From Candidatus Anderseniibacteriota bacterium (lineage in GTDB: Bacteria > Patescibacteriota > Andersenbacteria > UBA10190): 64,000 nucleotides of DNA. The notes beneath the pieces were generated by a model. The model was not told where the DNA came from. It was given only the letters and a program-made list of their open reading frames with translations, and did not search any database. Shown in pieces: positions 2,810 through 54,932 of the stretch (its first letter is position 1; every line of letters starts with the position of its first letter). The DNA lies in assembly GCA_035288905.1 (NCBI GenBank), contig DATDYZ010000001.1, positions 19,172 through 83,171 of the forward strand. Reading direction: 5' to 3'. A program made the translations under genes and the position numbers.

Positions 2810-3211
2810 ATGTCTTTACTTACACTCTCAAAACGAATACTCGGAAAAAACACAAAATCTTCTGAAGTTAAAAAGAAGAAAATTTCTGCCGCCGCCCTTC
2901 GAAAATCTCAGGGTAAACAACAAGTAGATACACAAGCACTTACGACCGGAGCAATTGGTCTTGCGGAAGTTGTTTCTGAAAAGGGCATTAAGCAGCAATT
3001 GCACGGGACGGTTGTGTTTACGGTGTTGCCCCATGTAACAAAGACGCAGATTTCTGCTGCTATTGAGTCCAGGTTCGGCGTGAAGGTAAAAAGTGTTCGA
3101 ACTTCTCTTTCTCATCCAAAAACGAAGCGACGTGGTGTTACAGAAGGAAAAACAAATCGCTTCAAGAAAGCGTATGTGAGCGTTGATAATGTTCAGAAGC
3201 TTGTAAAGTAA
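2810..3211 (+). CDS. rplW: 50S ribosomal protein L23 (N-terminally extended)
   Basis: L23-like C-terminal region in the correct operon position. The start is trimmed to the ATG after the rplD stop. It is longer than typical bacterial L23. Confidence 0.8.
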   Translation: MSLLTLSKRILGKNTKSSEVKKKKISAAALRKSQGKQQVDTQALTTGAIGLAEVVSEKGIKQQLHGTVVFTVLPHVTKTQISAAIESRFGVKVKSVRTSLSHPKTKRRGVTEGKTNRFKKAYVSVDNVQKLVK

Positions 3212-36322: not shown

Positions 36323-36961
36323 ATGATTGGGATTATATCTATGAACTGTAACGAATATCACATAATCGGAATGAGTCCTGGTAATAGCTATTTTAAGGAT
36401 GAAGAAATTCTTTACCTGCTCAAAACTACAATTGATCGTTTTGGTAAGGTAGCTATTTTAATTGCGGATATTCCTGCAATATCTACATACATAGCTTTGG
36501 GGTATCCAGAAAATCGAGCACGGCGTGATAAGGCCATACCAAAAGGCAATGCGTTAAAAAATCGCGTACGAAAAATAATGGCCAAGCTTGGTTATTCTGA
36601 GGATATTGTCAGAATTATTGATTGGGAACATGAAGTAGAAAATAATTCCGAGTATCAGAAAAGCTATCAAAATGTACTTGAATTATACAAGCAGAATCGA
36701 GCGTTTCATAGCGCTGCAGATACTACTACCTACTTAGTGCTTGAAAGCTCAAAAAAGGATTTTGATGACATTGAACTCGCCACTGGTATTGCGGTTCATT
36801 ATCTTTTATCAGAGTTTGCTTTTTTGGAGTTTGCGCCGAGCTTTTTGGAAGCAACAAAAGTTATTTATGTTTATCATAAAAACTGGCAAGTATACGAAGA
36901 TTATATCGCAGGTAAATTTGATCATGTCGTACGTCCAAATTTAGGTTTTCTATTACTATAG
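36323..36961 (+). CDS. Cyclodipeptide synthase (CDPS, AlbC/YvmC family)-like protein
   Basis: HIIGMSPGNSYF aligns with the AlbC HALIGISAGNSYF region (catalytic Ser). TYLVLE gives a Y..x3..E pair, and a later VYHKN gives a YH. Length (212 aa) is in the CDPS range. Confidence 0.55.
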   Translation: MIGIISMNCNEYHIIGMSPGNSYFKDEEILYLLKTTIDRFGKVAILIADIPAISTYIALGYPENRARRDKAIPKGNALKNRVRKIMAKLGYSEDIVRIIDWEHEVENNSEYQKSYQNVLELYKQNRAFHSAADTTTYLVLESSKKDFDDIELATGIAVHYLLSEFAFLEFAPSFLEATKVIYVYHKNWQVYEDYIAGKFDHVVRPNLGFLLL

Positions 36962-37035: not shown

Positions 37036-37701
37036 ATGAGTTATCGGCATGTGGGCTTTGCACCAGGTGAGATATATCACATATTCACTCGTGGCGTTGA
37101 GAAAAGAAAGATCTTTCTCTATGATGCTGATCGAATCCGTTTTCTTTCGCTCCTTGTGCATTGTTTACCACAAGGTCCAATCCAAAGTTTTTCTGTCGCG
37201 CAAAAACTCAAGCGAAAAACTGAGATTACCGCTTCTGGCGAAGGGCTAGTAGATATTCTCTGTTACTGCCTTATGAATAATCATATTCACCTGCTCCTGA
37301 AAGAAAATGTCGAAAAAGGTATTTCTATATACATGCAACGACTGCTCACTAGCTACGCTATGTATTTTAACAGAAGATCTGAGCGTTCAGGATCCTTATT
37401 TGTAAATCCGTTTAAGGCGGTTGTAGTTGATGCTGACGATCAATTCCTGCACGTCACTCGATATATTCATCTAAATCCGTTTGTTGCGCATCTGGTTGAA
37501 GACCCCTTTGGATATATTTGGTCTTCTTTACATGAATACACAGCTGCTTCACAAGAAAGTAAAATTTGTCACCCTGAATTACTCCGAGGAATAATGGGAC
37601 AACAGGAGTATCACCGTTTTGTGCTAGATCATGCCGACTATTCGCAGTCGCTTGTAGATAATTATCACCTTCTTATCGACATTGATGAAGAAGTGTCATA
37701 A
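37036..37701 (+). CDS. IS200/IS605-like HuH Y1 transposase (REP-associated tyrosine transposase, RAYT-like)
   Basis: HuH motif NNHIHLLL and the conserved tyrosine region TRYIHLNP. Flanked by REP-C copies. Confidence 0.8.
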   Translation: MSYRHVGFAPGEIYHIFTRGVEKRKIFLYDADRIRFLSLLVHCLPQGPIQSFSVAQKLKRKTEITASGEGLVDILCYCLMNNHIHLLLKENVEKGISIYMQRLLTSYAMYFNRRSERSGSLFVNPFKAVVVDADDQFLHVTRYIHLNPFVAHLVEDPFGYIWSSLHEYTAASQESKICHPELLRGIMGQQEYHRFVLDHADYSQSLVDNYHLLIDIDEEVS

Positions 37702-43814: not shown

Positions 43815-43847
43815 GGAATCATTCCGACACCTGGTGTCGGAATCTTG
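43815..43847. repeat. REP-D palindrome TTCCGACACCTGGTGTCGGAA
   Basis: Perfect hairpin. Confidence 0.8.
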
Positions 43848-43863
43848 TGATAGAATATTTACT

Positions 43864-44523
43864 ATGGGGTATCGAATAAATGGGTTTGAGCGGGGCGGTG
43901 TATACCACATATTTACGCGCGGTGTGGAGAAGAGGGAAATTTTTATGGATCATTCCGATCGTGTACGGTTTATCTCGCAAATGATTCATTGCTTGCCCGA
44001 TGAGCCTATTCTGAATTTTTCGCATGCACAAAAACTAAAACGAAAGTTGATAATAACCAGCGAAGGGGAGGGGTTAGCGGATATTCTTTGTTATTGCTTA
44101 ATGAATAATCATGTTCATTTTTTGCTCCGAGAAAATGTTGATGGTGGTATTTCGCGCTATATGCAACGGCTGCTCAATAGCTTCGCTCGGTATTTTAATG
44201 TTAAATACGAGCGCACTGGGGCGTTATTTGCGGGTCCGTTTCGGTCTGTTCCTGTGGTAAGTGATGATCAGCTTTTGCACGTAAGTAGGTATATTCATCT
44301 TAATCCTCATGCTGCGCATATAGTAAAGGATGTCTTCGCATATCCCTGGTCCTCGTTACGTGCATACTTAAACGACGAAGATTCGAAACTTTATTGCCAC
44401 GCTGACTTTCTTGCGTCATTAATGGATAAAAAAGAATATAAAAAATTCGTTTTCGATCAAGTGAGTTACGAACAATCCTTAGCTGCTTTTCCTGAACTTC
44501 TTTTAGATGATGACTATACTTAA
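43864..44523 (+). CDS. HuH Y1 transposase (RAYT-like), second paralog
   Basis: VYHIFTRGVEKREIF, NNHVHFLL and SRYIHLNPH. Trimmed from track ORF 43834, which starts in the REP. Confidence 0.8.
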   Translation: MGYRINGFERGGVYHIFTRGVEKREIFMDHSDRVRFISQMIHCLPDEPILNFSHAQKLKRKLIITSEGEGLADILCYCLMNNHVHFLLRENVDGGISRYMQRLLNSFARYFNVKYERTGALFAGPFRSVPVVSDDQLLHVSRYIHLNPHAAHIVKDVFAYPWSSLRAYLNDEDSKLYCHADFLASLMDKKEYKKFVFDQVSYEQSLAAFPELLLDDDYT

Positions 44524-48809: not shown

Positions 48810-48817
48810 GATTCTAC

Positions 48818-48846
48818 TTGACAAAGTAACACTATGACAGTAATAT
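48818..48846 (+). promoter_or_regulatory. Sigma70-like promoter TTGACA-17-TAATAT
   Basis: Seen directly. Confidence 0.5.
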
Positions 48847-48965
48847 GTCCGTAGTGTTCTTTACAATTTAGTGTTGTGAAGACCCATGGCACCGGGAAGG
48901 GCCAATTTCGAATGAAGGTCCCCGCAATTTTCATCCATTGAATTTACGATGAAAGGTATTGAACG

Positions 48966-49253
48966 ATGAACAAGAAACAAACTGAAAAAGGAGAGTTTGT
49001 TCAGGATCAGTCAGGTCTTTGGCACTACACTCCCACGGATCATGTATCGGCATACATCACACGTTGGATTGTAGACGCCCTCGCTAATATGCCCGATGGA
49101 CCAGCATGGTTTTGGTTTAATAATCTGCCAGCTCCAATTGTTCCAAACGATACCCCAGAAACACTGGAGAGGCGTTGGTATAAGGTCAATAATCCGTATA
49201 AAGATCAAGTACCATTTTTGAAAAGCCTCTTGGAGTTTATAAGTGAGGCATGA
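48966..49253 (+). CDS. Hypothetical small protein
   Basis: ORF of 95 aa with its own promoter and a leader of about 110 nt. I recognise no family. Confidence 0.4.
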   Translation: MNKKQTEKGEFVQDQSGLWHYTPTDHVSAYITRWIVDALANMPDGPAWFWFNNLPAPIVPNDTPETLERRWYKVNNPYKDQVPFLKSLLEFISEA

Positions 49254-49283
49254 CAATATGTATGCTACGGTCAGAAACACGCA

Positions 49284-49320
49284 GCCCCTCGACGCAATCG
49301 CGACGAGGGGTTTTTATTTT
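49284..49320 (+). terminator. Rho-independent terminator (CCCCTCG...CGAGGGG followed by a T-run)
   Basis: Seen directly. Confidence 0.55.
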
Positions 49321-49335
49321 TCTGACCCGACGCTC

Positions 49336-49365
49336 TTGACAGATAGTATTCTTACACTGTATATT
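49336..49365 (+). promoter_or_regulatory. Sigma70-like promoter TTGACA-18-TATATT
   Basis: Seen directly. Confidence 0.5.
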
Positions 49366-49437
49366 GCGCATCAGGAAAAGGACAGCATCGTAGCTATTCT
49401 TTTTTGTTTCGTTGACAACTTGTGCGAGGTCTCAAAG

Positions 49438-50253
49438 ATGTCAAATATTCAATATGATTTTACTGGCAAGGTAGCAATCGTAACCGGCGGAGCGTCTGGT
49501 ATTGGCAAGGCTACAGTGAAGATGTTTGCCGAAGCCGGCGCGAATGTTGTGCTGGTGGATGTTAATAAGGGTCGTGGTGAAACAGTAGCGGAGGAGCTCG
49601 GTGAGAGAGTTTGTTTTGTCTTTGCAGACGTAGCAAGAACCCGGCATGCCGAAGAGGTGGCGCAAAGGGCGATGCTTGCCTTCGGGAAGATTGATATTCT
49701 CGTGAACAATGCGGGTATCGAGTACAACGACCGAGGAAATCTTGTCACGATGCCACACGATGACATGATGCGCATTATCCAAGTGAACCTCTTCGGATAT
49801 ATCCATATGGTTCGCGCGTGCCTGCCTCATATGAATTTCGGCGGGCGTGTGGTGAACGTGAGTTCCCTGCAAGGTCTTGCAGCGGCTCTTCCAGGTACAA
49901 GTTATCAGTCTACCAAGGCAGCTATTCTTGGGATGACGAGGGCTCTGGCTATCGAATATGCGCTTGAGGGGATAACCTTCAACAGTGTTTGTCCTGGTGC
50001 TATATGTACTGAAGGAATGGGTGCGGCGCGGGCAGGAGGATCGGCATCGCTTGACCCAACTCGCAGGCGTATTCCTATGGGGCGCAGAGGGTGGCCACAT
50101 GAGGTTGCTGCGTTGATCGCCTTCTTGGCTTCAGATGCAGCTAGTTATATGACCGGTGGCGATTATGTCGTGGACGGTGGGTTGCTTATAAGCCTCAGTG
50201 CAGACGACCCGTCCAAGCCAACGCCAAATGTTTCAAACGATCCGGATCGGTAA
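49438..50253 (+). CDS. Short-chain dehydrogenase/reductase (SDR)
   Basis: TGGASGIGKA, NNAGI and S...Y...K catalytic residues. Trimmed from track ORF 49243. GC is visibly higher than in neighbouring genes. Confidence 0.85.
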   Translation: MSNIQYDFTGKVAIVTGGASGIGKATVKMFAEAGANVVLVDVNKGRGETVAEELGERVCFVFADVARTRHAEEVAQRAMLAFGKIDILVNNAGIEYNDRGNLVTMPHDDMMRIIQVNLFGYIHMVRACLPHMNFGGRVVNVSSLQGLAAALPGTSYQSTKAAILGMTRALAIEYALEGITFNSVCPGAICTEGMGAARAGGSASLDPTRRRIPMGRRGWPHEVAALIAFLASDAASYMTGGDYVVDGGLLISLSADDPSKPTPNVSNDPDR

Positions 50254-50321
50254 GCACAGTAACAAGGTGCTCTCAAAGGGCTCATTGCGGAATTCAATTC
50301 TGCGTGGGCCCTCTTTTTTAT

Positions 50322-50351
50322 TTGACAAAGTTGGCTGTATATGTATATAAT
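50322..50351 (+). promoter_or_regulatory. Sigma70 consensus promoter TTGACA-18-TATAAT, followed by a structured leader of about 128 nt
   Basis: Seen directly. Confidence 0.55.
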
Positions 50352-50479
50352 GCGAAATCGTTTGAGACCAGTGTTTTGCCTTATATATGGTGTTTTATAG
50401 GCAAAACAGTGTTCTCAAGGTGAGACCACTATGTCCCGAAACGGACATGAACGGATCTTTGACAAACAGGATAACGTAC

Positions 50480-51385
50480 ATGAAGCTCAGAAATACGGAA
50501 TTTGCGGATGTGATAGCCAGGTTTATATCAGTCCGAACAGGACTATTGGAGGACTGGGAAAAGTTCGCTGGAATCCAGGGATCAAAACAGCAGCGCGAAG
50601 GCGCAAGCACTGTATTGAAAGCAGACCTGTGGGCCGAGCAGCGGTTGGTTCCCGTTCTTCGTTACTTGTGGCCAGGTGTGCCTTTTCTCTGCGAAGAGGC
50701 AGGAAATTCCGGTCTCGCAACGCTCGTCCCAGGCATTGAACTGCTTTCGTGGGATGATGATGTCACCAACCTGCCCGACAATTTCGTCAGTGTTGATGGA
50801 GTTGACGGATCGGCACTCTATGCCAATCAGTGCTTTGAGCTCGTTGCGATGATGGCCGGTCTTGTTAAGGACGGTCGTCCAAGCGCTGGTATTGTCACGA
50901 TGCTTGATGATGGAGCAATGTATCACACTGGTGTCAACGGGCAGCCAGGTGTATTTAAGGGAGATAAGCCCCATGAAGAATGGCTTGTCCCGGTACGTCC
51001 GCTCAACAAGTGCTTGATCTGCGTCGATGACTGTGGAAGTGTGGATGAGGACTTCCGCAAACTCGTGACAAACATGTTGACGGGAACGAAAGATTTTGCG
51101 TATCCGATGAATACCCCGTCGGGCGCCGGCCCAATCAATGTGCTCAGAGGAAGAGCAGCTGCCTATGTCTCGAGTAACGCTCGAAACTGGGACCAGGTTG
51201 CAACTGCAGCTCTTTTGGGGGCGGCTGGCATGATTGTTCGGTGTTTGGACGGATCTGAAGTACCCTGGAAGCAGACTCGAATGCCGGCAGTGGTATTCGC
51301 TCGGGACGAGGAAACTTTCTGCTATATTCAGAAGCAGGCCAAGGAGTACCTCGAACTGCAGAAAAAGAAGCAGTCTGCCGCGTAA
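50480..51385 (+). CDS. Inositol monophosphatase-family phosphatase (IMPase/CysQ/FBPase superfamily), higher-GC paralog
   Basis: LCEEAG, SVDGVDGS (DPIDGT-like) and NWDQVATAALLGAAG (the WD.AAG motif). Start chosen by alignment with the paralog at 53159. Confidence 0.72.
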   Translation: MKLRNTEFADVIARFISVRTGLLEDWEKFAGIQGSKQQREGASTVLKADLWAEQRLVPVLRYLWPGVPFLCEEAGNSGLATLVPGIELLSWDDDVTNLPDNFVSVDGVDGSALYANQCFELVAMMAGLVKDGRPSAGIVTMLDDGAMYHTGVNGQPGVFKGDKPHEEWLVPVRPLNKCLICVDDCGSVDEDFRKLVTNMLTGTKDFAYPMNTPSGAGPINVLRGRAAAYVSSNARNWDQVATAALLGAAGMIVRCLDGSEVPWKQTRMPAVVFARDEETFCYIQKQAKEYLELQKKKQSAA

Positions 51386-51412
51386 GTAAAAGCGCTTTAT
51401 GCGCCAACAACA

Positions 51413-51447
51413 AGCCGATTAGATTCACCTCTAATCGGCTTTTTTCT
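51413..51447 (+). terminator. Rho-independent terminator AGCCGATTAG...CTAATCGGCT followed by TTTTTT
   Basis: Seen directly. Confidence 0.6.
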
Positions 51448-51453
51448 TGCCCT

Positions 51454-51483
51454 TGACAAGTATAGTGTTTTAGATATACAATG
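51454..51483 (+). promoter_or_regulatory. Sigma70-like promoter TTGACA-16/18-TATACAAT, followed by a structured leader of about 125 nt
   Basis: Seen directly. Confidence 0.5.
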
Positions 51484-51610
51484 CATAGTTCTTTTAAGGG
51501 TCATGAGGGTGGCGTTTTGTCTCGTATTTCGGGCTAAAACGGTGCTCTCACGGTGAGAATACCAGATTTCAGAAATATGATCGTTCGTTACAAATTGATG
51601 GAGTACAGTT

Positions 51611-52309
51611 ATGCGCAAGGTGATTTCTTTGAGTGACATGAATGTTTTGGGAAAAGGCGGTTGGCTCAGCCTTTACAAGCTGAGTCCAGAACAGACGGGA
51701 TTGAAGTTCAATTCTGAAATCGCCGCGAGAAATAACCAGAAGTATGGCGCAGCAAAATGTCTGCGCCTGGTTACAAACCAGTCGCTAGAGAGGCGGGAAG
51801 ATACGGATATTCAGAGCCTCTGTGCAACGCTTCGGGAAATTGGATTGGCAAACATCGCGGTTCAATTCTTGGCTGCGATCCGACCATTCACATTTTTTGA
51901 CGGACCGGGGTTGGAGCGGCTGGAGGTGAACTACCAAATCGAGTTGCCCGGTGGAATCATTGAACCCGATGAAGACGCTCGGCTGGGTGCTTTGCGGGAA
52001 GCCATGGAAGAAGGCGGAAAAGCGAAGACCATTCAGTGTGCGTCTCTTATGGTGTATAGCTCTCCGTTTGATGCGGGAAGCCATGTTGAGATGTACTCCA
52101 TTGAAACAGCGCTTGTGTATGCGGAAACACTTGCGCCACCGGCTCGAGAAGGTGTCATTCCCGAAAAGTGCGCGCTCGTTCCTTTGCTTGAAGTGCAGCA
52201 ATGGCTTCTTGGAAAAGAATGTCAGGGTATCCCGATTGAGGGATACGCCAAGACTGCGCTTGCTTTGCTCGGACTGGAACTCCACGGAGGATGGAGAGCT
52301 TTGAGCTAA
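51611..52309 (+). CDS. Nudix hydrolase
   Basis: The Nudix box GIIEPDEDARLGALREAMEEGG matches Gx5Ex7REUxEExGU. Confidence 0.78.
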   Translation: MRKVISLSDMNVLGKGGWLSLYKLSPEQTGLKFNSEIAARNNQKYGAAKCLRLVTNQSLERREDTDIQSLCATLREIGLANIAVQFLAAIRPFTFFDGPGLERLEVNYQIELPGGIIEPDEDARLGALREAMEEGGKAKTIQCASLMVYSSPFDAGSHVEMYSIETALVYAETLAPPAREGVIPEKCALVPLLEVQQWLLGKECQGIPIEGYAKTALALLGLELHGGWRALS

Positions 52310-52343
52310 CGAGACATTCTCGTTCGTTCACATCTTTCACAAT

Positions 52344-52377
52344 AGGCGACAGATTCAAACCCTGTCGCCTTTTTTTA
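52344..52377 (+). terminator. Rho-independent terminator AGGCGACAG...CTGTCGCCT followed by TTTTTTT
   Basis: Seen directly. Confidence 0.6.
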
Positions 52378-52407
52378 TTGACAAAATAGATGACATCTTG
52401 TTAATAT
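52378..52407 (+). promoter_or_regulatory. Sigma70-like promoter TTGACA-17-TTAATA, abutting the terminator
   Basis: Seen directly. Confidence 0.5.
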
Positions 52408-52454
52408 GCTAAGTTGGTCTTTGCCAATTTACGTTACTTGATTTAGGGCTCTTT

Positions 52455-53063
52455 TTGAGAGAAAATGAAAGCATGATTACAAAACTCATGGTGTTAGACC
52501 GCGACGGATTGCTCAACGTAGACGTTGGGTATACCTACAAAGTGGAAGATTTGAAACTTGCCCCAGGCGTTATTGAAGGCCTTACGCTTCTCAAGAGTCT
52601 TGGGTTTCGGTTTGCCATTGCAACCGGCCAGTCTGGAATTGGGAAGGGTAAGTACACCGAAGCAGACATGGACGCGTTCAATATCGCATTGCTTGCCGAG
52701 CTTGCAAAAAGCGACATTCAGGTCGACGCCGTTGCATTTTGCCCACACGACAAGGGCGAAGGGTGCAAGTGCAGGAAGCCGGGAGTTGGTATGCTTGAGC
52801 AAATTGAAGCAAAGCTTGGTCCGATCGACTGGTCAAAAGCATGGGGAAGTGGCGACAAGCCTGCAGACTCAAAGATGATTCTCGCGATGGGAGGTTCTGC
52901 GGTTCTGGTAGAAAGCGGACCACACAATAACTCGGCTGGGAAAGCGTACTGGGATGAAGAACCAGAACTTCTGAAAGAAGTCATGGGAAACCCAAGAAAC
53001 TTCGTGGCGCACGATCTTGGCGCAGCTGCGTTGGTTATTCAACAGCAGTTGGCAGCATCGTAA
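52455..53063 (+). CDS. HAD-IIIA phosphatase, GmhB-like (D,D-heptose 1,7-bisphosphate phosphatase family), second copy
   Basis: VLDRDGLLN and the zinc motif CPHDKGEGCKCRKP. Confidence 0.78.
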   Translation: MRENESMITKLMVLDRDGLLNVDVGYTYKVEDLKLAPGVIEGLTLLKSLGFRFAIATGQSGIGKGKYTEADMDAFNIALLAELAKSDIQVDAVAFCPHDKGEGCKCRKPGVGMLEQIEAKLGPIDWSKAWGSGDKPADSKMILAMGGSAVLVESGPHNNSAGKAYWDEEPELLKEVMGNPRNFVAHDLGAAALVIQQQLAAS

Positions 53064-53086
53064 TTCCAACACCAGTTGTTGGAAAA
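53061..53086. repeat. Degenerate REP-D-like palindrome TTCCAACACCAGTTGTTGGAA
   Basis: Hairpin. Confidence 0.55.
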
Positions 53087-53158
53087 TGAAGAACAGTACG
53101 ACCGTTTGGGATTTCCCAGGCGGTCGATTTTATATTTAAATGACTATATACTAAACGT

Positions 53159-54028
53159 ATGGAATTACAGAAAATAACAACATTATTTCAGACAACGGGA
53201 CAATTATTAATTGACGATTGGGGAAGACTTACAGGTATAGTTAGTGAAAAAGAAATACTTGAAGGATCAAGTTCCGTTTTACATGCAGATTGGATTGCAG
53301 AAAAGGCATATGTGCCTCTTGCAACAAAGTTGTGGCCTAACGTGCCAGTTTTGTGCGAAGAAGCTGGAACATCCGGAGTCGCAGATTTAATTTCAGGAGT
53401 TTCTTTGCTTCCACATGAAGATAATGTTATTGATTTGCCGTCAGACTTCATTAGTGCAGATGGAGTGGACGGTTCGGCGCTGTATGCAAATGGTATGTTT
53501 ACGTTAGTTTCTATGATGGCAGGGCTTATAAAAGACGGAAAACCTCACGCTGGGGTACTGATGGTGCTTGGTGAGAAGAAGCTGTATCACACAGGGATTG
53601 ATGGAAAGCCAGGTGTGTTTTATGGAGATCTCTCATATAATGAGTGGCGTTTGCCTGCTCGTCCTCTGAAACAGTCTTTGATAGGAACGGACGACAATAA
53701 GTCTGTTGATGCCAATTTTCGCAATCTTGTGATTAATAAATTAATGGGCAGTTCTGGTTTTAGATATCCTCTCAATATGCCCTCAGGCGCAGGGGCTCTC
53801 GCAGTTTTAAAGGGTAATCTTGCGGTATACGTAACGAGTAATGCGCGAAACTGGGACTTGGCTACCACGTCAGCACTTTGCATGGCTGCTGGTCAGGTTG
53901 TTCGTTGTTTGGACGGTTCCGAAGTGCCCTGGAATGTAGTGCGAATGCCGCCTGTCGTATTTGCTCGCGACGAAGAAACATTTTTATACGTGCACACATT
54001 AGCAAAAAACTGGCTTAACACTGTATAA
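53159..54028 (+). CDS. Inositol monophosphatase-family phosphatase, native-GC paralog of 50480..51385
   Basis: About half the residues are identical to the upstream paralog, with the same motifs (LCEEAG, SADGVDGS, NWDLATTSALCMAAG). Confidence 0.72.
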   Translation: MELQKITTLFQTTGQLLIDDWGRLTGIVSEKEILEGSSSVLHADWIAEKAYVPLATKLWPNVPVLCEEAGTSGVADLISGVSLLPHEDNVIDLPSDFISADGVDGSALYANGMFTLVSMMAGLIKDGKPHAGVLMVLGEKKLYHTGIDGKPGVFYGDLSYNEWRLPARPLKQSLIGTDDNKSVDANFRNLVINKLMGSSGFRYPLNMPSGAGALAVLKGNLAVYVTSNARNWDLATTSALCMAAGQVVRCLDGSEVPWNVVRMPPVVFARDEETFLYVHTLAKNWLNTV

Positions 54029-54048
54029 GGTCCTAGAATAGATGGTAC

Positions 54049-54077
54049 TTGACAATAGTACAATATAGGTATATAAT
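54049..54077 (+). promoter_or_regulatory. Sigma70 consensus promoter TTGACA-17-TATAAT
   Basis: Seen directly. Confidence 0.55.
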
Positions 54078-54137
54078 GAACCAAGTGCTGATTTTTGGCT
54101 GTTTTTTGGCAATTTCCCTCTGAAGGAGGAAAGAGTA

Positions 54138-54770
54138 ATGACAAATCGAATTACCGATCATGTGTTTGACGCTCGAAGGGTGATGAAGTGCGTACCTGGA
54201 CTTGTCCGAACGCAATACACCGAAGCTGATGTTTGTAAGCTGCTTTCAGACGAAACGCTTGCGAGGTTGCTTCCGTCGGTTCGACAGCAGCCGGAAGTGT
54301 TGCCGCCTATTCATGTGATTCGATGCGGTAAGGAGCCAGCGATGCCTGGGGGCATCATAATTGGGGCTTCGTGGAAGATTGAACAACACCTACATTGTGA
54401 GGATTTGACATGGAGCGCTGACTCTGTGCGATTGGAAGAATTTCCTGAAAAAAAGATGATCAGGGATGATCGTCCTTGGGTTTTTCTACCATTGCCTAAA
54501 AAACCATTTGCGAACGCCAATGTTGCAAATTACCTTTTACGGCACACTCACCTGATTCCGGATTCATGGAAGATGAAAAATGACGGTGAACCTGTGGAGA
54601 TTCTGTTTCTCGGAACTCTTTTTGGGAAACATTCGGCAGCTCAACATGATGAGATGTCTACTACCTTCCACGTTCAGACGTTGTACTTTTCGCGTCGAAA
54701 GTGGAGAAGGGGGTTGATGAATTTGACTTCCTGGCGATGCGGGGCAAGTCGCGTTGCCGTCCTCACATAA
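54138..54770 (+). CDS. Hypothetical protein (210 aa) preceded by a strong GGAGGA ribosome-binding site
   Basis: ORF with a Shine-Dalgarno sequence. I recognise no family. Confidence 0.5.
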   Translation: MTNRITDHVFDARRVMKCVPGLVRTQYTEADVCKLLSDETLARLLPSVRQQPEVLPPIHVIRCGKEPAMPGGIIIGASWKIEQHLHCEDLTWSADSVRLEEFPEKKMIRDDRPWVFLPLPKKPFANANVANYLLRHTHLIPDSWKMKNDGEPVEILFLGTLFGKHSAAQHDEMSTTFHVQTLYFSRRKWRRGLMNLTSWRCGASRVAVLT

Positions 54771-54799
54771 CGTCTTCGTGCAAACAAACGCCGATCGTG

Positions 54800-54846
54800 A
54801 TTGAATTATTCAATCAGGGTCGGCTTTTTTCTTTTTGTTTTGCTTT
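54800..54846 (+). terminator. Rho-independent terminator (GCCGATCGTGATTGAAT...ATTCAATCAGGGTCGGC followed by TTTTTT)
   Basis: Seen directly. Confidence 0.55.
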
Positions 54847-54932
54847 TGCAAAATAACCCCGCACTGCGCCCCGCGAAGCTTTAGCGTAGTGGGGTGTTCC
54901 CTTTTGAGTCCGAACACCTATATAATCAATAT

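Follow-up and report, generated by a model that had tools for sequence, protein, structure and literature searches.

We analyzed a window of 64 kb (the whole stretch of DNA presented here) from Candidatus Andersenbacteria, an uncultivated and ultra-small lineage of the Patescibacteria, or candidate phyla radiation (CPR), and report on a short element in the leaders of two adjacent single-gene cassettes. Knowledge of gene regulation in Patescibacteria/CPR is extremely scarce, and a review of these bacteria names riboswitches only as prospective tools (PMC11665869). The first cassette encodes an IMPase/CysQ-like protein of the Inositol_P family (IMPase-like 1; 50480..51385, + strand, 301 amino acids, Pfam PF00459), and the second encodes a Nudix hydrolase (51611..52309, + strand, 232 amino acids, Pfam PF00293). 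IMPase-like 1 is 100% identical to a protein from a Candidatus Andersenbacteria metagenome-assembled genome; its similarity to CysQ is weak, and its top PDB match, 4qxd, is a 3'(2'),5'-bisphosphate nucleotidase. The Nudix protein shows weak similarity to NudE and ADP-sugar pyrophosphatase. Each cassette has its own promoter on the + strand: TTGACA-18-TATAAT for the IMPase-like gene (50322..50351), which matches the consensus at 12/12 positions, and TTGACA-18-TACAAT for the Nudix gene (51453..51482), a near-perfect sigma-70 match.

An earlier note on this DNA had claimed that the two leaders share a motif, and they do. A 23-nucleotide (nt) consensus, AAAACRGTGYTCTCANGGTGAGA, occurs on the + strand at 50403-50425 and 51536-51558, in each case ~50 to 60 nt 3' of the sigma-70 promoter and within the 5' untranslated region (UTR). 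No further match was found in the 64-kb window when up to 3 mismatches were allowed, and 100 dinucleotide shuffles gave 0 matches (0 expected versus 2 exact matches observed). The motif is absent from the other promoter-bearing leaders of the surrounding island (48847, 49366, 52408, and 54078). The Shine-Dalgarno (SD) sequence and start codon of both genes lie 45 to 60 nt 3' of the motif and are not paired with its strands in the predicted folds.

Two helices that share one strand

The motif had been described as a TCTCA-NGG-TGAGA hairpin with a 3-nt loop. That hairpin is present, but it is not the full extent of the structure, as the stem runs on through a 1x1 mismatch and 4 further pairs. 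This longer hairpin, P-short, reads AGUG-u-UCUCA-agg-UGAGA-c-CACU in the IMPase leader (50408..50430, + strand, -8.6 kcal/mol) and GGUG-c-UCUCA-cgg-UGAGA-a-UACC in the Nudix leader (51541..51563, + strand, -9.2 kcal/mol, a value matched by 1 of 200 shuffles). It is formed by the 3' part of one strand, B, and a downstream strand, C. Its architecture, a 4-bp outer stem, a 1x1 mismatch, a UCUC(A)/(U)GRGR stem, and a variable 3- to 6-nt loop, is the conserved core of the family.

The earlier note had also pointed out complementary GTTTTG(C/T)C segments farther upstream, and these are present (50373-50380 and 51513-51520). What it missed is that they form the inner part of a 16- to 19-nt strand, A, that competes for the hairpin's own strand: its partner is AAAAC-R-G-UG-Y-UCUCA, the left half of the motif, which is strand B. 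The resulting helix, P-long, spans 50362..50418 on the + strand of the IMPase leader (strand A, 50362-50380, TTGAGACCAGTGTTTTGCC; strand B, 50400-50418, GGCAAAACAGTGTTCTCAA), where its apical loop is variable, and 51504..51550 on the + strand of the Nudix leader (strand A, 51504-51519, TGAGGGTGGCGTTTTG; strand B, 51535-51550, TAAAACGGTGCTCTCA), where an apical helix, CUCG/CGGG, is present. P-long is the minimum-free-energy (MFE) fold in both window leaders, and that of the IMPase leader is the top inverted repeat of the region (I1), with 20-nt arms that are 90% complementary. The Nudix P-long includes four G-U or U-G pairs and therefore pairs better as RNA than as a DNA palindrome. The predicted transcription start site (TSS) of the IMPase leader is at ~50357-50359; thus, P-long of this leader begins 3 to 5 nt from the RNA 5' end. 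As A and C compete for strand B, which cannot pair with both at once, P-long and P-short are mutually exclusive.

Nine copies in a narrow clade

Among 5.8 billion proteins, the IMPase-like family comprises 13 proteins and the Nudix family 7. The contigs of these homologues, from related Patescibacteria, hold seven further copies of the element, which brings the total to nine instances. Five are long forms with strand A: the two window copies, one before an IMPase homologue (L016), one before a Nudix homologue (L025, which is the same as L026 and L027), and one before a divergent IMPase-like gene (L012b). The other four are short forms with P-short alone, located before an IMPase-1 orthologue (L011), a GT9-like rather than a Nudix gene (L012a), a Nudix paralogue (L012c), and an IMPase homologue (L028, a short form by appearance, with its promoter off the contig). 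All nine lie on the sense strand in 5' UTRs, with a TTGACA-N17/18-TATAAT-type promoter upstream wherever the promoter is on the contig. By promoter prediction, the short forms begin 4 nt (L011 and L012a) to 7 nt (L012c) 3' of the -10 box, as flush 5'-terminal hairpins, and the long forms begin 10 to 21 nt after it. Homologues at L013, L017, L019, L020, and L023 and the leaderless-looking IMPase-2 orthologues are without the element.

Descent from one duplicated DNA segment, which the earlier note had named as a way for its idea to fail, does not by itself describe these leaders, as the sequence from promoter to motif and the sequence 3' of the motif have diverged. Between orthologous leaders (proteins 59 to 73% identical), the motif and a BoxA-like block are conserved and the surrounding leader has diverged. 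A scan of 185,579 species genomes with AAAACNGTGNTCTCANNNTGAGA returned 10 matches, the chance level, all in unrelated sequence (e.g., a conserved Vibrio stretch) and none with a 5' arm. JGI metagenomes scanned with AAAACRGTRYTCTCNNGGTGAGA gave one match, within the coding sequence (CDS) of a transporter, and two scans of IMG/VR viral contigs gave only coding-looking chance matches. From these genome, metagenome, and viral scans, all at chance level, we conclude that the motif does not extend beyond a narrow clade. In Rfam 15, the window matched only RNase P at the gathering threshold, the leaders gave only sub-threshold chance matches at E<=10 (mir-85, Qrr, etc.), and 11 related loci gave nothing relevant at E<=1. 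The element is thus a new, narrowly distributed cis-acting leader RNA that matches no catalogued family. Structured 5'-leader elements with alternative pairings are already known as a kind; what is new is this one, in a small CPR clade.

We also ran a covariance model (CM) of P-short, R1, over the window and 12 loci. It found no further copies beyond a weak partial one at 50261-50289, right after the SDR stop codon (10.8 bits, E=3.6), which reads AACAAGGTGCTCTCAAAGGGCTCA and has GGTGCTCTCAA in common with the motif. This may be the relic of a former leader, left behind by cassette shuffling.

Next, we examined covariation in two alignments, A4 for P-short (nine sequences) and A3 for P-long (the five long forms). 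In A4, P-short was 86% paired and showed compensatory changes: pair 11-28 is AU in 3, GC in 3, and GU in 2 sequences, and pair 12-27 is CG in 2, UA in 2, AU in 1, and otherwise a mismatch. One-sided changes were wobble compatible in 10/10 cases, and slid registers gave only 32 to 64% pairing. P-long in A3 was 87% paired, with 4 compensatory pairs. The covariation score and number of double changes of P-short were reached by 0/500 shuffles, as was the result for P-long (0/500). Across copies, the P-short CM scored 34 to 45 bits on the + strand and at most 21 bits on the - strand; for the IMPase leader, R1 gave 45.5 versus 17 bits. A U-A to U-G substitution would give an A.C clash if read on the other strand; this, together with the strand bias of the CM, favors RNA of the sense transcript over a DNA operator. 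The proposal of a shared structured cis-regulatory RNA is borne out by compensatory changes in both helices and by recurrence before homologous and unrelated genes, and we consider it probable that the element is a functional structured RNA.

These data also bear on the suggestion of a protein-binding site, which is viable for RNA and disfavored for double-stranded DNA. As a DNA operator, the inverted repeat TCTCA-N3-TGAGA would be bound by a dimeric repressor close to where transcription starts, and indeed several copies have a perfect 5-N3-5 core palindrome and the short-form element covers roughly +1 to +25 of its promoter. However, the symmetric, strand-independent conservation of half-sites that a palindromic operator calls for fails. 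Departures from the palindrome are without exception transitions that preserve G-U pairing on the sense strand, the outer-stem positions covary (AU/GC/GU) rather than being conserved, asymmetry marks the flanks and the conserved central GG as well as the CM scores of the two strands, and the site in the long forms lies 55 to 75 bp downstream of the TSS. A DNA operator is accordingly very improbable.

The long forms show how closely the two helices are matched. Forcing UCUC to pair downstream had a predicted cost of 1.3 to 4.2 kcal/mol in four of them, and in L012b the unconstrained MFE fold already holds P-short, with which the apical GUUUUG/CAAAAC part of P-long can coexist. L012b is also the sole exception to the unpaired start region, as its MFE fold pairs an in-frame upstream ATG beside P-short. 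P-long carries a G.G mismatch in 5/5 long forms, opposite the G of the best-conserved outer pair of P-short (G-C in 8/9 copies), as would be expected if selection kept both states balanced. Strand C has also stayed complementary to strand B throughout the five long forms, an arrangement without purpose if P-long always won. We searched for kissing-loop or pseudoknot partners of the NGG loop and found nothing consistent across members.

Competition among three strands in a 5' leader, A:B versus B:C with balanced energies, is also the design of riboswitch and attenuator platforms, and the earlier note had suggested both. Unlike those platforms, this element has no terminator, no sequestration of an SD sequence or AUG, and no conserved aptamer, and strand A is missing in some members. 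We rejected an intrinsic-terminator attenuator: no U-run follows either hairpin, no U-tract lies 3' of P-short or P-long in the family (CCACUAUGUCC, AUACCAGAUUUCAG, etc.), and a terminator scan found none inside the leaders. Were the element a metabolite riboswitch, the ligand, a nucleotide or a sugar phosphate, would be bound by P-long, whose internal G.G and Y.U mismatches are conserved, and P-short would be the alternative fold. This would suit the two-state architecture, the invariant noncanonical positions in P-long, and downstream genes that act on nucleotides and sugar phosphates. However, P-long is absent from 4/9 members, the element is very small and has no Rfam match, the SD sequences and starts of the genes are not paired with the motif, and there is no terminator or SD-sequestering expression platform. 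The loop of P-short (AGG, CGG, UGG, UAAGG, UAUGC, or ACGU) and the apex of P-long vary freely, so there is no conserved ligand pocket, and a conserved ligand-binding core is absent. We consider a riboswitch very improbable.

Several other known elements were compared and rejected. Like CsrA/RsmA sites, P-short is a short 5'-UTR hairpin presenting a loop GG; unlike them, its loop is NGG-U and not A(N)GGA, GG is lost in two members, and no CsrA is known here. None of the loops (AGG-U, CGG-U, UGG-U, UAAGG-U, UAUGC-U, and ACGU) contains the A(N)GGA of a CsrA binding hairpin. An integron attC site would require the order RYYYAAC...GTTRRRY, versus GTTTTG...CAAAAC here; the element lies in the promoter-gene interval at the 5' end, it is present in only 2 of at least 6 cassettes, and no integrase is among the annotated neighbors. 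A miniature inverted-repeat transposable element (MITE) or Correia-like repeat does not fit two copies in 64 kb, with no more in a repeat scan and with collection matches at chance level or in CDS. RAT/BglG, PyrR, MS2-type, K-turn, and guanidine-II (ACGR loop) elements misfit in their loop and stem consensus.

A possible toggle at the mRNA 5' end

Probably, then, the element is not an attenuator, a riboswitch, or a DNA operator. The reading that we favor, to which we assign a probability of roughly 40%, is a post-transcriptional 5'-end toggle that sets mRNA lifetime and/or ribosome loading, most likely one read by a protein or an RNase. P-short would lie at or near the mRNA 5' end, and strand B would switch its partner between A and C. 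With A:B formed, the 5' end would be buried in a helix and strand C would be single stranded, exposing an SD-like GGUGA with, in most copies, a start codon 7 nt on. With B:C formed, 12 to 25 nt at the 5' end would be free and open to 5'-end-dependent decay. The two states, whose predicted energies are nearly equal, would be held close to isoenergetic by the invariant G.G mismatch, which would stop P-long from winning outright. The reader would be a trans-acting macromolecule, namely, an RNA-binding protein, an RNase, or the ribosome. We infer that the states interconvert in vivo, that such a reader tips the balance, and that mRNA stability or translation is the output. The outcome would be coregulation of IMPase/CysQ-like, Nudix, and GT9-like cassette genes in a variable heptose/rhamnose glycan island. 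In a variant of this scheme, RNase III-type cleavage of P-long would yield a 5' end capped by P-short, such as the short forms have natively.

There is precedent for such a function in Firmicutes. According to work cited in PMC3997798, the aprE leader and STAB-SD, which combine a 5' stem-loop with a ribosome-binding sequence, are 5' mRNA stabilizers of B. subtilis, and protection by ribosomes against RNase J1 is known in this group (PMC5737220). As in aprE/STAB-SD stabilizers, the stem-loop here would lie at, or a few nucleotides from, the predicted 5' end, provided that the TSS is ~7 nt 3' of the predicted -10 box; as in aprE/cryIIIA STAB-SD, an SD-like AGGUGA that is not the gene's own ribosome-binding site follows or overlaps the stem-loop; and, as in the Firmicutes stabilizers generally, there is no terminator and no ligand pocket. 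The element differs from them in that the hairpin sequence is conserved across unrelated genes, in that about half the copies add a competing upstream strand and so a two-state fold, and in that not every copy has the SD-like run: (A)GGUGA or GGUGG is found in 7/9 copies and is lost in L028 (GCUGG) and L012c. An effect on half-life is also putative here.

A number of points weigh against a toggle of this kind. The 5'-terminal position derives from promoter prediction, and no trans-factor has been identified. Two candidates in the island were uninformative: an orphan 210-amino-acid open reading frame (ORF) at 54138 (54138-54770), which has no Pfam or NCBIfam match and, among 5.8 billion proteins, no homologue but itself, and a 95-amino-acid ORF at 48966, for which Pfam gave no match. 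The sequence invariance of UCUC and GGUG would not be needed by a purely structural stabilizer, the SD-like GGUGA is missing from L028 and L012c as just described, and the start codon at +7 is missing from both Nudix long forms and lies within the stem in L011 and L028. In addition, the comparison comprises nine sequences from a narrow clade found via homologues of the same two gene families, so that the gene association is biased and the sequences are related; kinship alone can beat shuffle controls.

Some of the same features could have been inherited without serving any switch. The copies would then be constitutive, protective 5'-terminal hairpins that travel with promoter and terminator modules as cassettes are duplicated and shuffled, conservation would reflect common descent, and the toggle would be incidental. 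Near-identical promoters and terminator families do recur across cassettes, genes, and contigs (GCCGAT...ATCGGCTTTTTTCTTG), a Nudix-type leader sits before the unrelated GT9-like gene in L012, the short forms amount to a mere hairpin at the 5' end, and the copy after the SDR stop codon at 50261-50289 is relic-like. However, the complementarity of B and C has been kept, with covariation, in five long forms in which P-long would normally outcompete it, the G.G mismatch that weakens P-long is invariant, and the motif is conserved far better than the flanking leader. We consider inheritance without switching unlikely.

The exposed SD-like sequence raises another alternative, in which P-long exposes AGGUGA and the start codon 7 nt on, P-short masks both, and ribosome loading on an upstream mini-ORF affects stability or downstream translation. 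In 6/8 copies with the pentamer GGTGR (GCTGG in L028), an ATG, GTG, or TTG follows at a distance of exactly 7 nt, versus a chance of ~3/64 per site: ATG at 50431 in the window IMPase leader and at ~111 in L016; ATG in L012b and TTG in L012a (7902 and ~6637 of L012); and GTG at ~886 in L011 and ~33 in L028. The ORF of L012a, 11 codons long, stops within the SD sequence of the main gene. Against this, the ORFs are erratic in length (2, 3, 8, 11, or 102 codons, or in frame with the gene), and the gaps in GGUGA and in the +7 start codon that count against the toggle, including the GUG codons of L011 and L028 inside the stem, count here too. Most genes of this genome also lack an SD sequence, and many look leaderless. 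A regulatory mini-ORF is, in our view, improbable.

As a compact cis-regulatory RNA, the element ties together genes for nucleotide and sugar-phosphate hydrolases (CysQ/IMPase-like, Nudix, and GT9-like) in a variable heptose/rhamnose island, a surface-glycan region likely to be relevant to host attachment. The balance among three strands, together with natural short forms that lack the competitor strand, makes this a neat system for studying RNA toggles. As the motif belongs to a narrow clade, its general importance is moderate.

BoxA-like boxes and the surrounding glycan island

We also made an unbiased Gibbs search of 18 island leaders, which returned not the hairpin but KTTCKTTGACAAW, mostly 2 to 11 nt 5' of the SD sequence. 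The consensus of this leader motif, GTTCTTTGACAA, matches GYTCTTTAANA at 10/11 positions, as does the best window site, GTTCTTTACAA (48856-48866), and the IMPase-leader site GATCTTTGACAA (50454..50465, + strand; GATCTTTGACA) matches at 9/11, GYTCTTTAANA being the published gamma-proteobacterial BoxA consensus (PMC5725501). The IMPase-leader site lies 2 nt 5' of the SD sequence AGGA (50468-50471). The Nudix-leader site, GTTCGTTACAA (51583..51593, + strand), lies 6 nt 5' of the SD sequence GGAG (51600-51603), needs a gap to fit the consensus, and is conserved in the L025 and L012a leaders. Further sites are found in window leaders at 49408-49419, 52416-52427, and 54102-54113. A position weight matrix built from nonwindow sites only placed 5 of its 29 window hits of at least 10 bits in six island leaders (~480 nt); window-wide, 29 hits compare with 19.6 in shuffles, a slight enrichment. 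The box also resembles an extended -35 box. Separately, the TTGACAA boxes of the leaders were ruled out as internal promoters by sequence inspection, as no -10 element lies 16 to 18 nt downstream.

A hairpin followed by a BoxA-like box could be a nut-like antitermination site, with P-short as boxB and the box recruiting NusB/NusE. RNA polymerase would then read through the inter-cassette terminators, or Nus binding by the SD sequence would repress translation. The E. coli gene suhB, itself of the IMPase family, has been shown to be repressed by way of a BoxA located 6 nt from the SD sequence (PMC5725501). Like the BoxA/Nus sites of the suhB 5' UTR, rrn boxB-boxA, and lambda nut, the leaders here have a hairpin and then a GYTCTTTAANA-like sequence a few nucleotides 5' of the SD sequence, and, as with suhB, one downstream family is IMPase-like. 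The proximity of KTTCKTTGACAAW to the SD sequence in most leaders and the matches of 10/11 and 9/11 noted above speak for such a site. The order of hairpin and then boxA is that of rrn leaders, and glycan clusters are classic targets of processive antitermination. On the other side, the BoxA-like motif is low in information and overlaps a -35-like TTGACAA, and Nus complexes act mainly against Rho, not against intrinsic terminators. Unlike in BoxA/Nus sites, the box is separate from the hairpin motif; it occurs in leaders with and without P-short and therefore does not explain P-short. The IMPase-like proteins, moreover, are paralogues of the CysQ type encoded in a sugar island rather than demonstrated orthologues of SuhB. 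We judge a nut-like site unlikely.

The toggle and the box might also work together, as a Nus-factor-dependent nut-like site in which the A/B/C switch decides whether the boxB-like hairpin forms, which we think quite unlikely. If true, polymerase leaving a cassette would resist terminators and read into the next cassettes of a hypervariable island, or translation would be shut off through Nus factors. It would then be the lineage's first described regulatory RNA system and a new way to wire shuffled cassettes into one regulon. With a BoxA-like box co-occurring with the element, Nus factors might exert control beyond rRNA in this phylum.

The island belongs to a larger glycan locus. The window begins at the ATG of rpsJ (position 1; the rRNA operon is not in the window) with a ribosomal-protein/SecY cluster, followed by glycosyltransferase genes, lepA, and rmlC. 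After rmlC come the single-gene cassettes: a small ORF, SDR, IMPase-like 1, Nudix, a GmhB-like HAD phosphatase, IMPase-like 2, and the orphan ORF. The cassettes end at rmlD, after which lie a complete nucleotide-heptose pathway (SIS/GmhA, PfkB kinase, GmhB-like, cytidylyltransferase-like, and epimerase), rmlA, and further glycosyltransferases. Most cassettes are individually equipped with a consensus promoter (TTGACA-N17/18-TATAAT) and a strong terminator of a common family, GCCGAT...ATCGGCTTTTTTCTTG or GGCGAC...GTCGCCTTTTTT. The set of cassettes between rmlC and rmlD differs among related contigs (window 48810-54900; L012 1592-8922; L011; L028), and we therefore regard this interval as a variable surface-glycan island (heptose/rhamnose). 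In or beside the glycan cluster there are also one gene of the cyclodipeptide-synthase family and two that are IS200-like (Y1 transposase) (36323-36961, 37036-37701, and 43834-44523).

At the start of the window, rpsJ (1-348) and rplC (1546-2118), normally neighbors, are 1.2 kb apart. The interval (349-1545) holds a consensus promoter (495-524), terminator-like hairpins, and ORFs at 590-967 and ~1087-1413 with hydrophobic N-terminal stretches, which suggests that the S10 operon received an insertion here. The leader of an inserted ORF has a box similar to the BoxA-like sites (558-568). An SD sequence is absent from most genes of the window, and a TATAAT-like box often ends 6 to 7 nt before the ATG (e.g., at 37036, 33377, 61589, 22023, 53159, and 54935), a spacing that suggests that leaderless mRNAs are widespread in this genome. 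The long-leader, SD-bearing cassettes are the exception.

Other leaders carry conserved features of their own. Two distant Nudix homologues, P0017 and P0018, have a different common leader motif, ACGGCTTGGGCAGCC(A/G)(A/T)AATAGAGCCC (L014 ~905-945 and L015 ~445-490); it is a hairpin just 5' of the SD sequence, without an Rfam match, whose loop UGGGC is able to pair with a downstream GCCCA as an H-type pseudoknot. The SDR leaders of the window (49384-49403) and L012 (~3190-3210) have a conserved block, AGCATCGTAG(C/T)TATTCTTTT, 5' of the BoxA-like box, possibly a further leader element. Upstream of rmlD, too, the sequence is conserved between contigs (window 54836-54905; L011 1903-1941; L012 8850-8922). 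A small hairpin in this region, GTTTTGC(C)-TTT(T)-GCAAAA(C/T), has arms like the inner arms of P-long, and 3' of this hairpin lies a G+C-rich, pairing-capable segment, AACCCCGC...GTGGGGTG.

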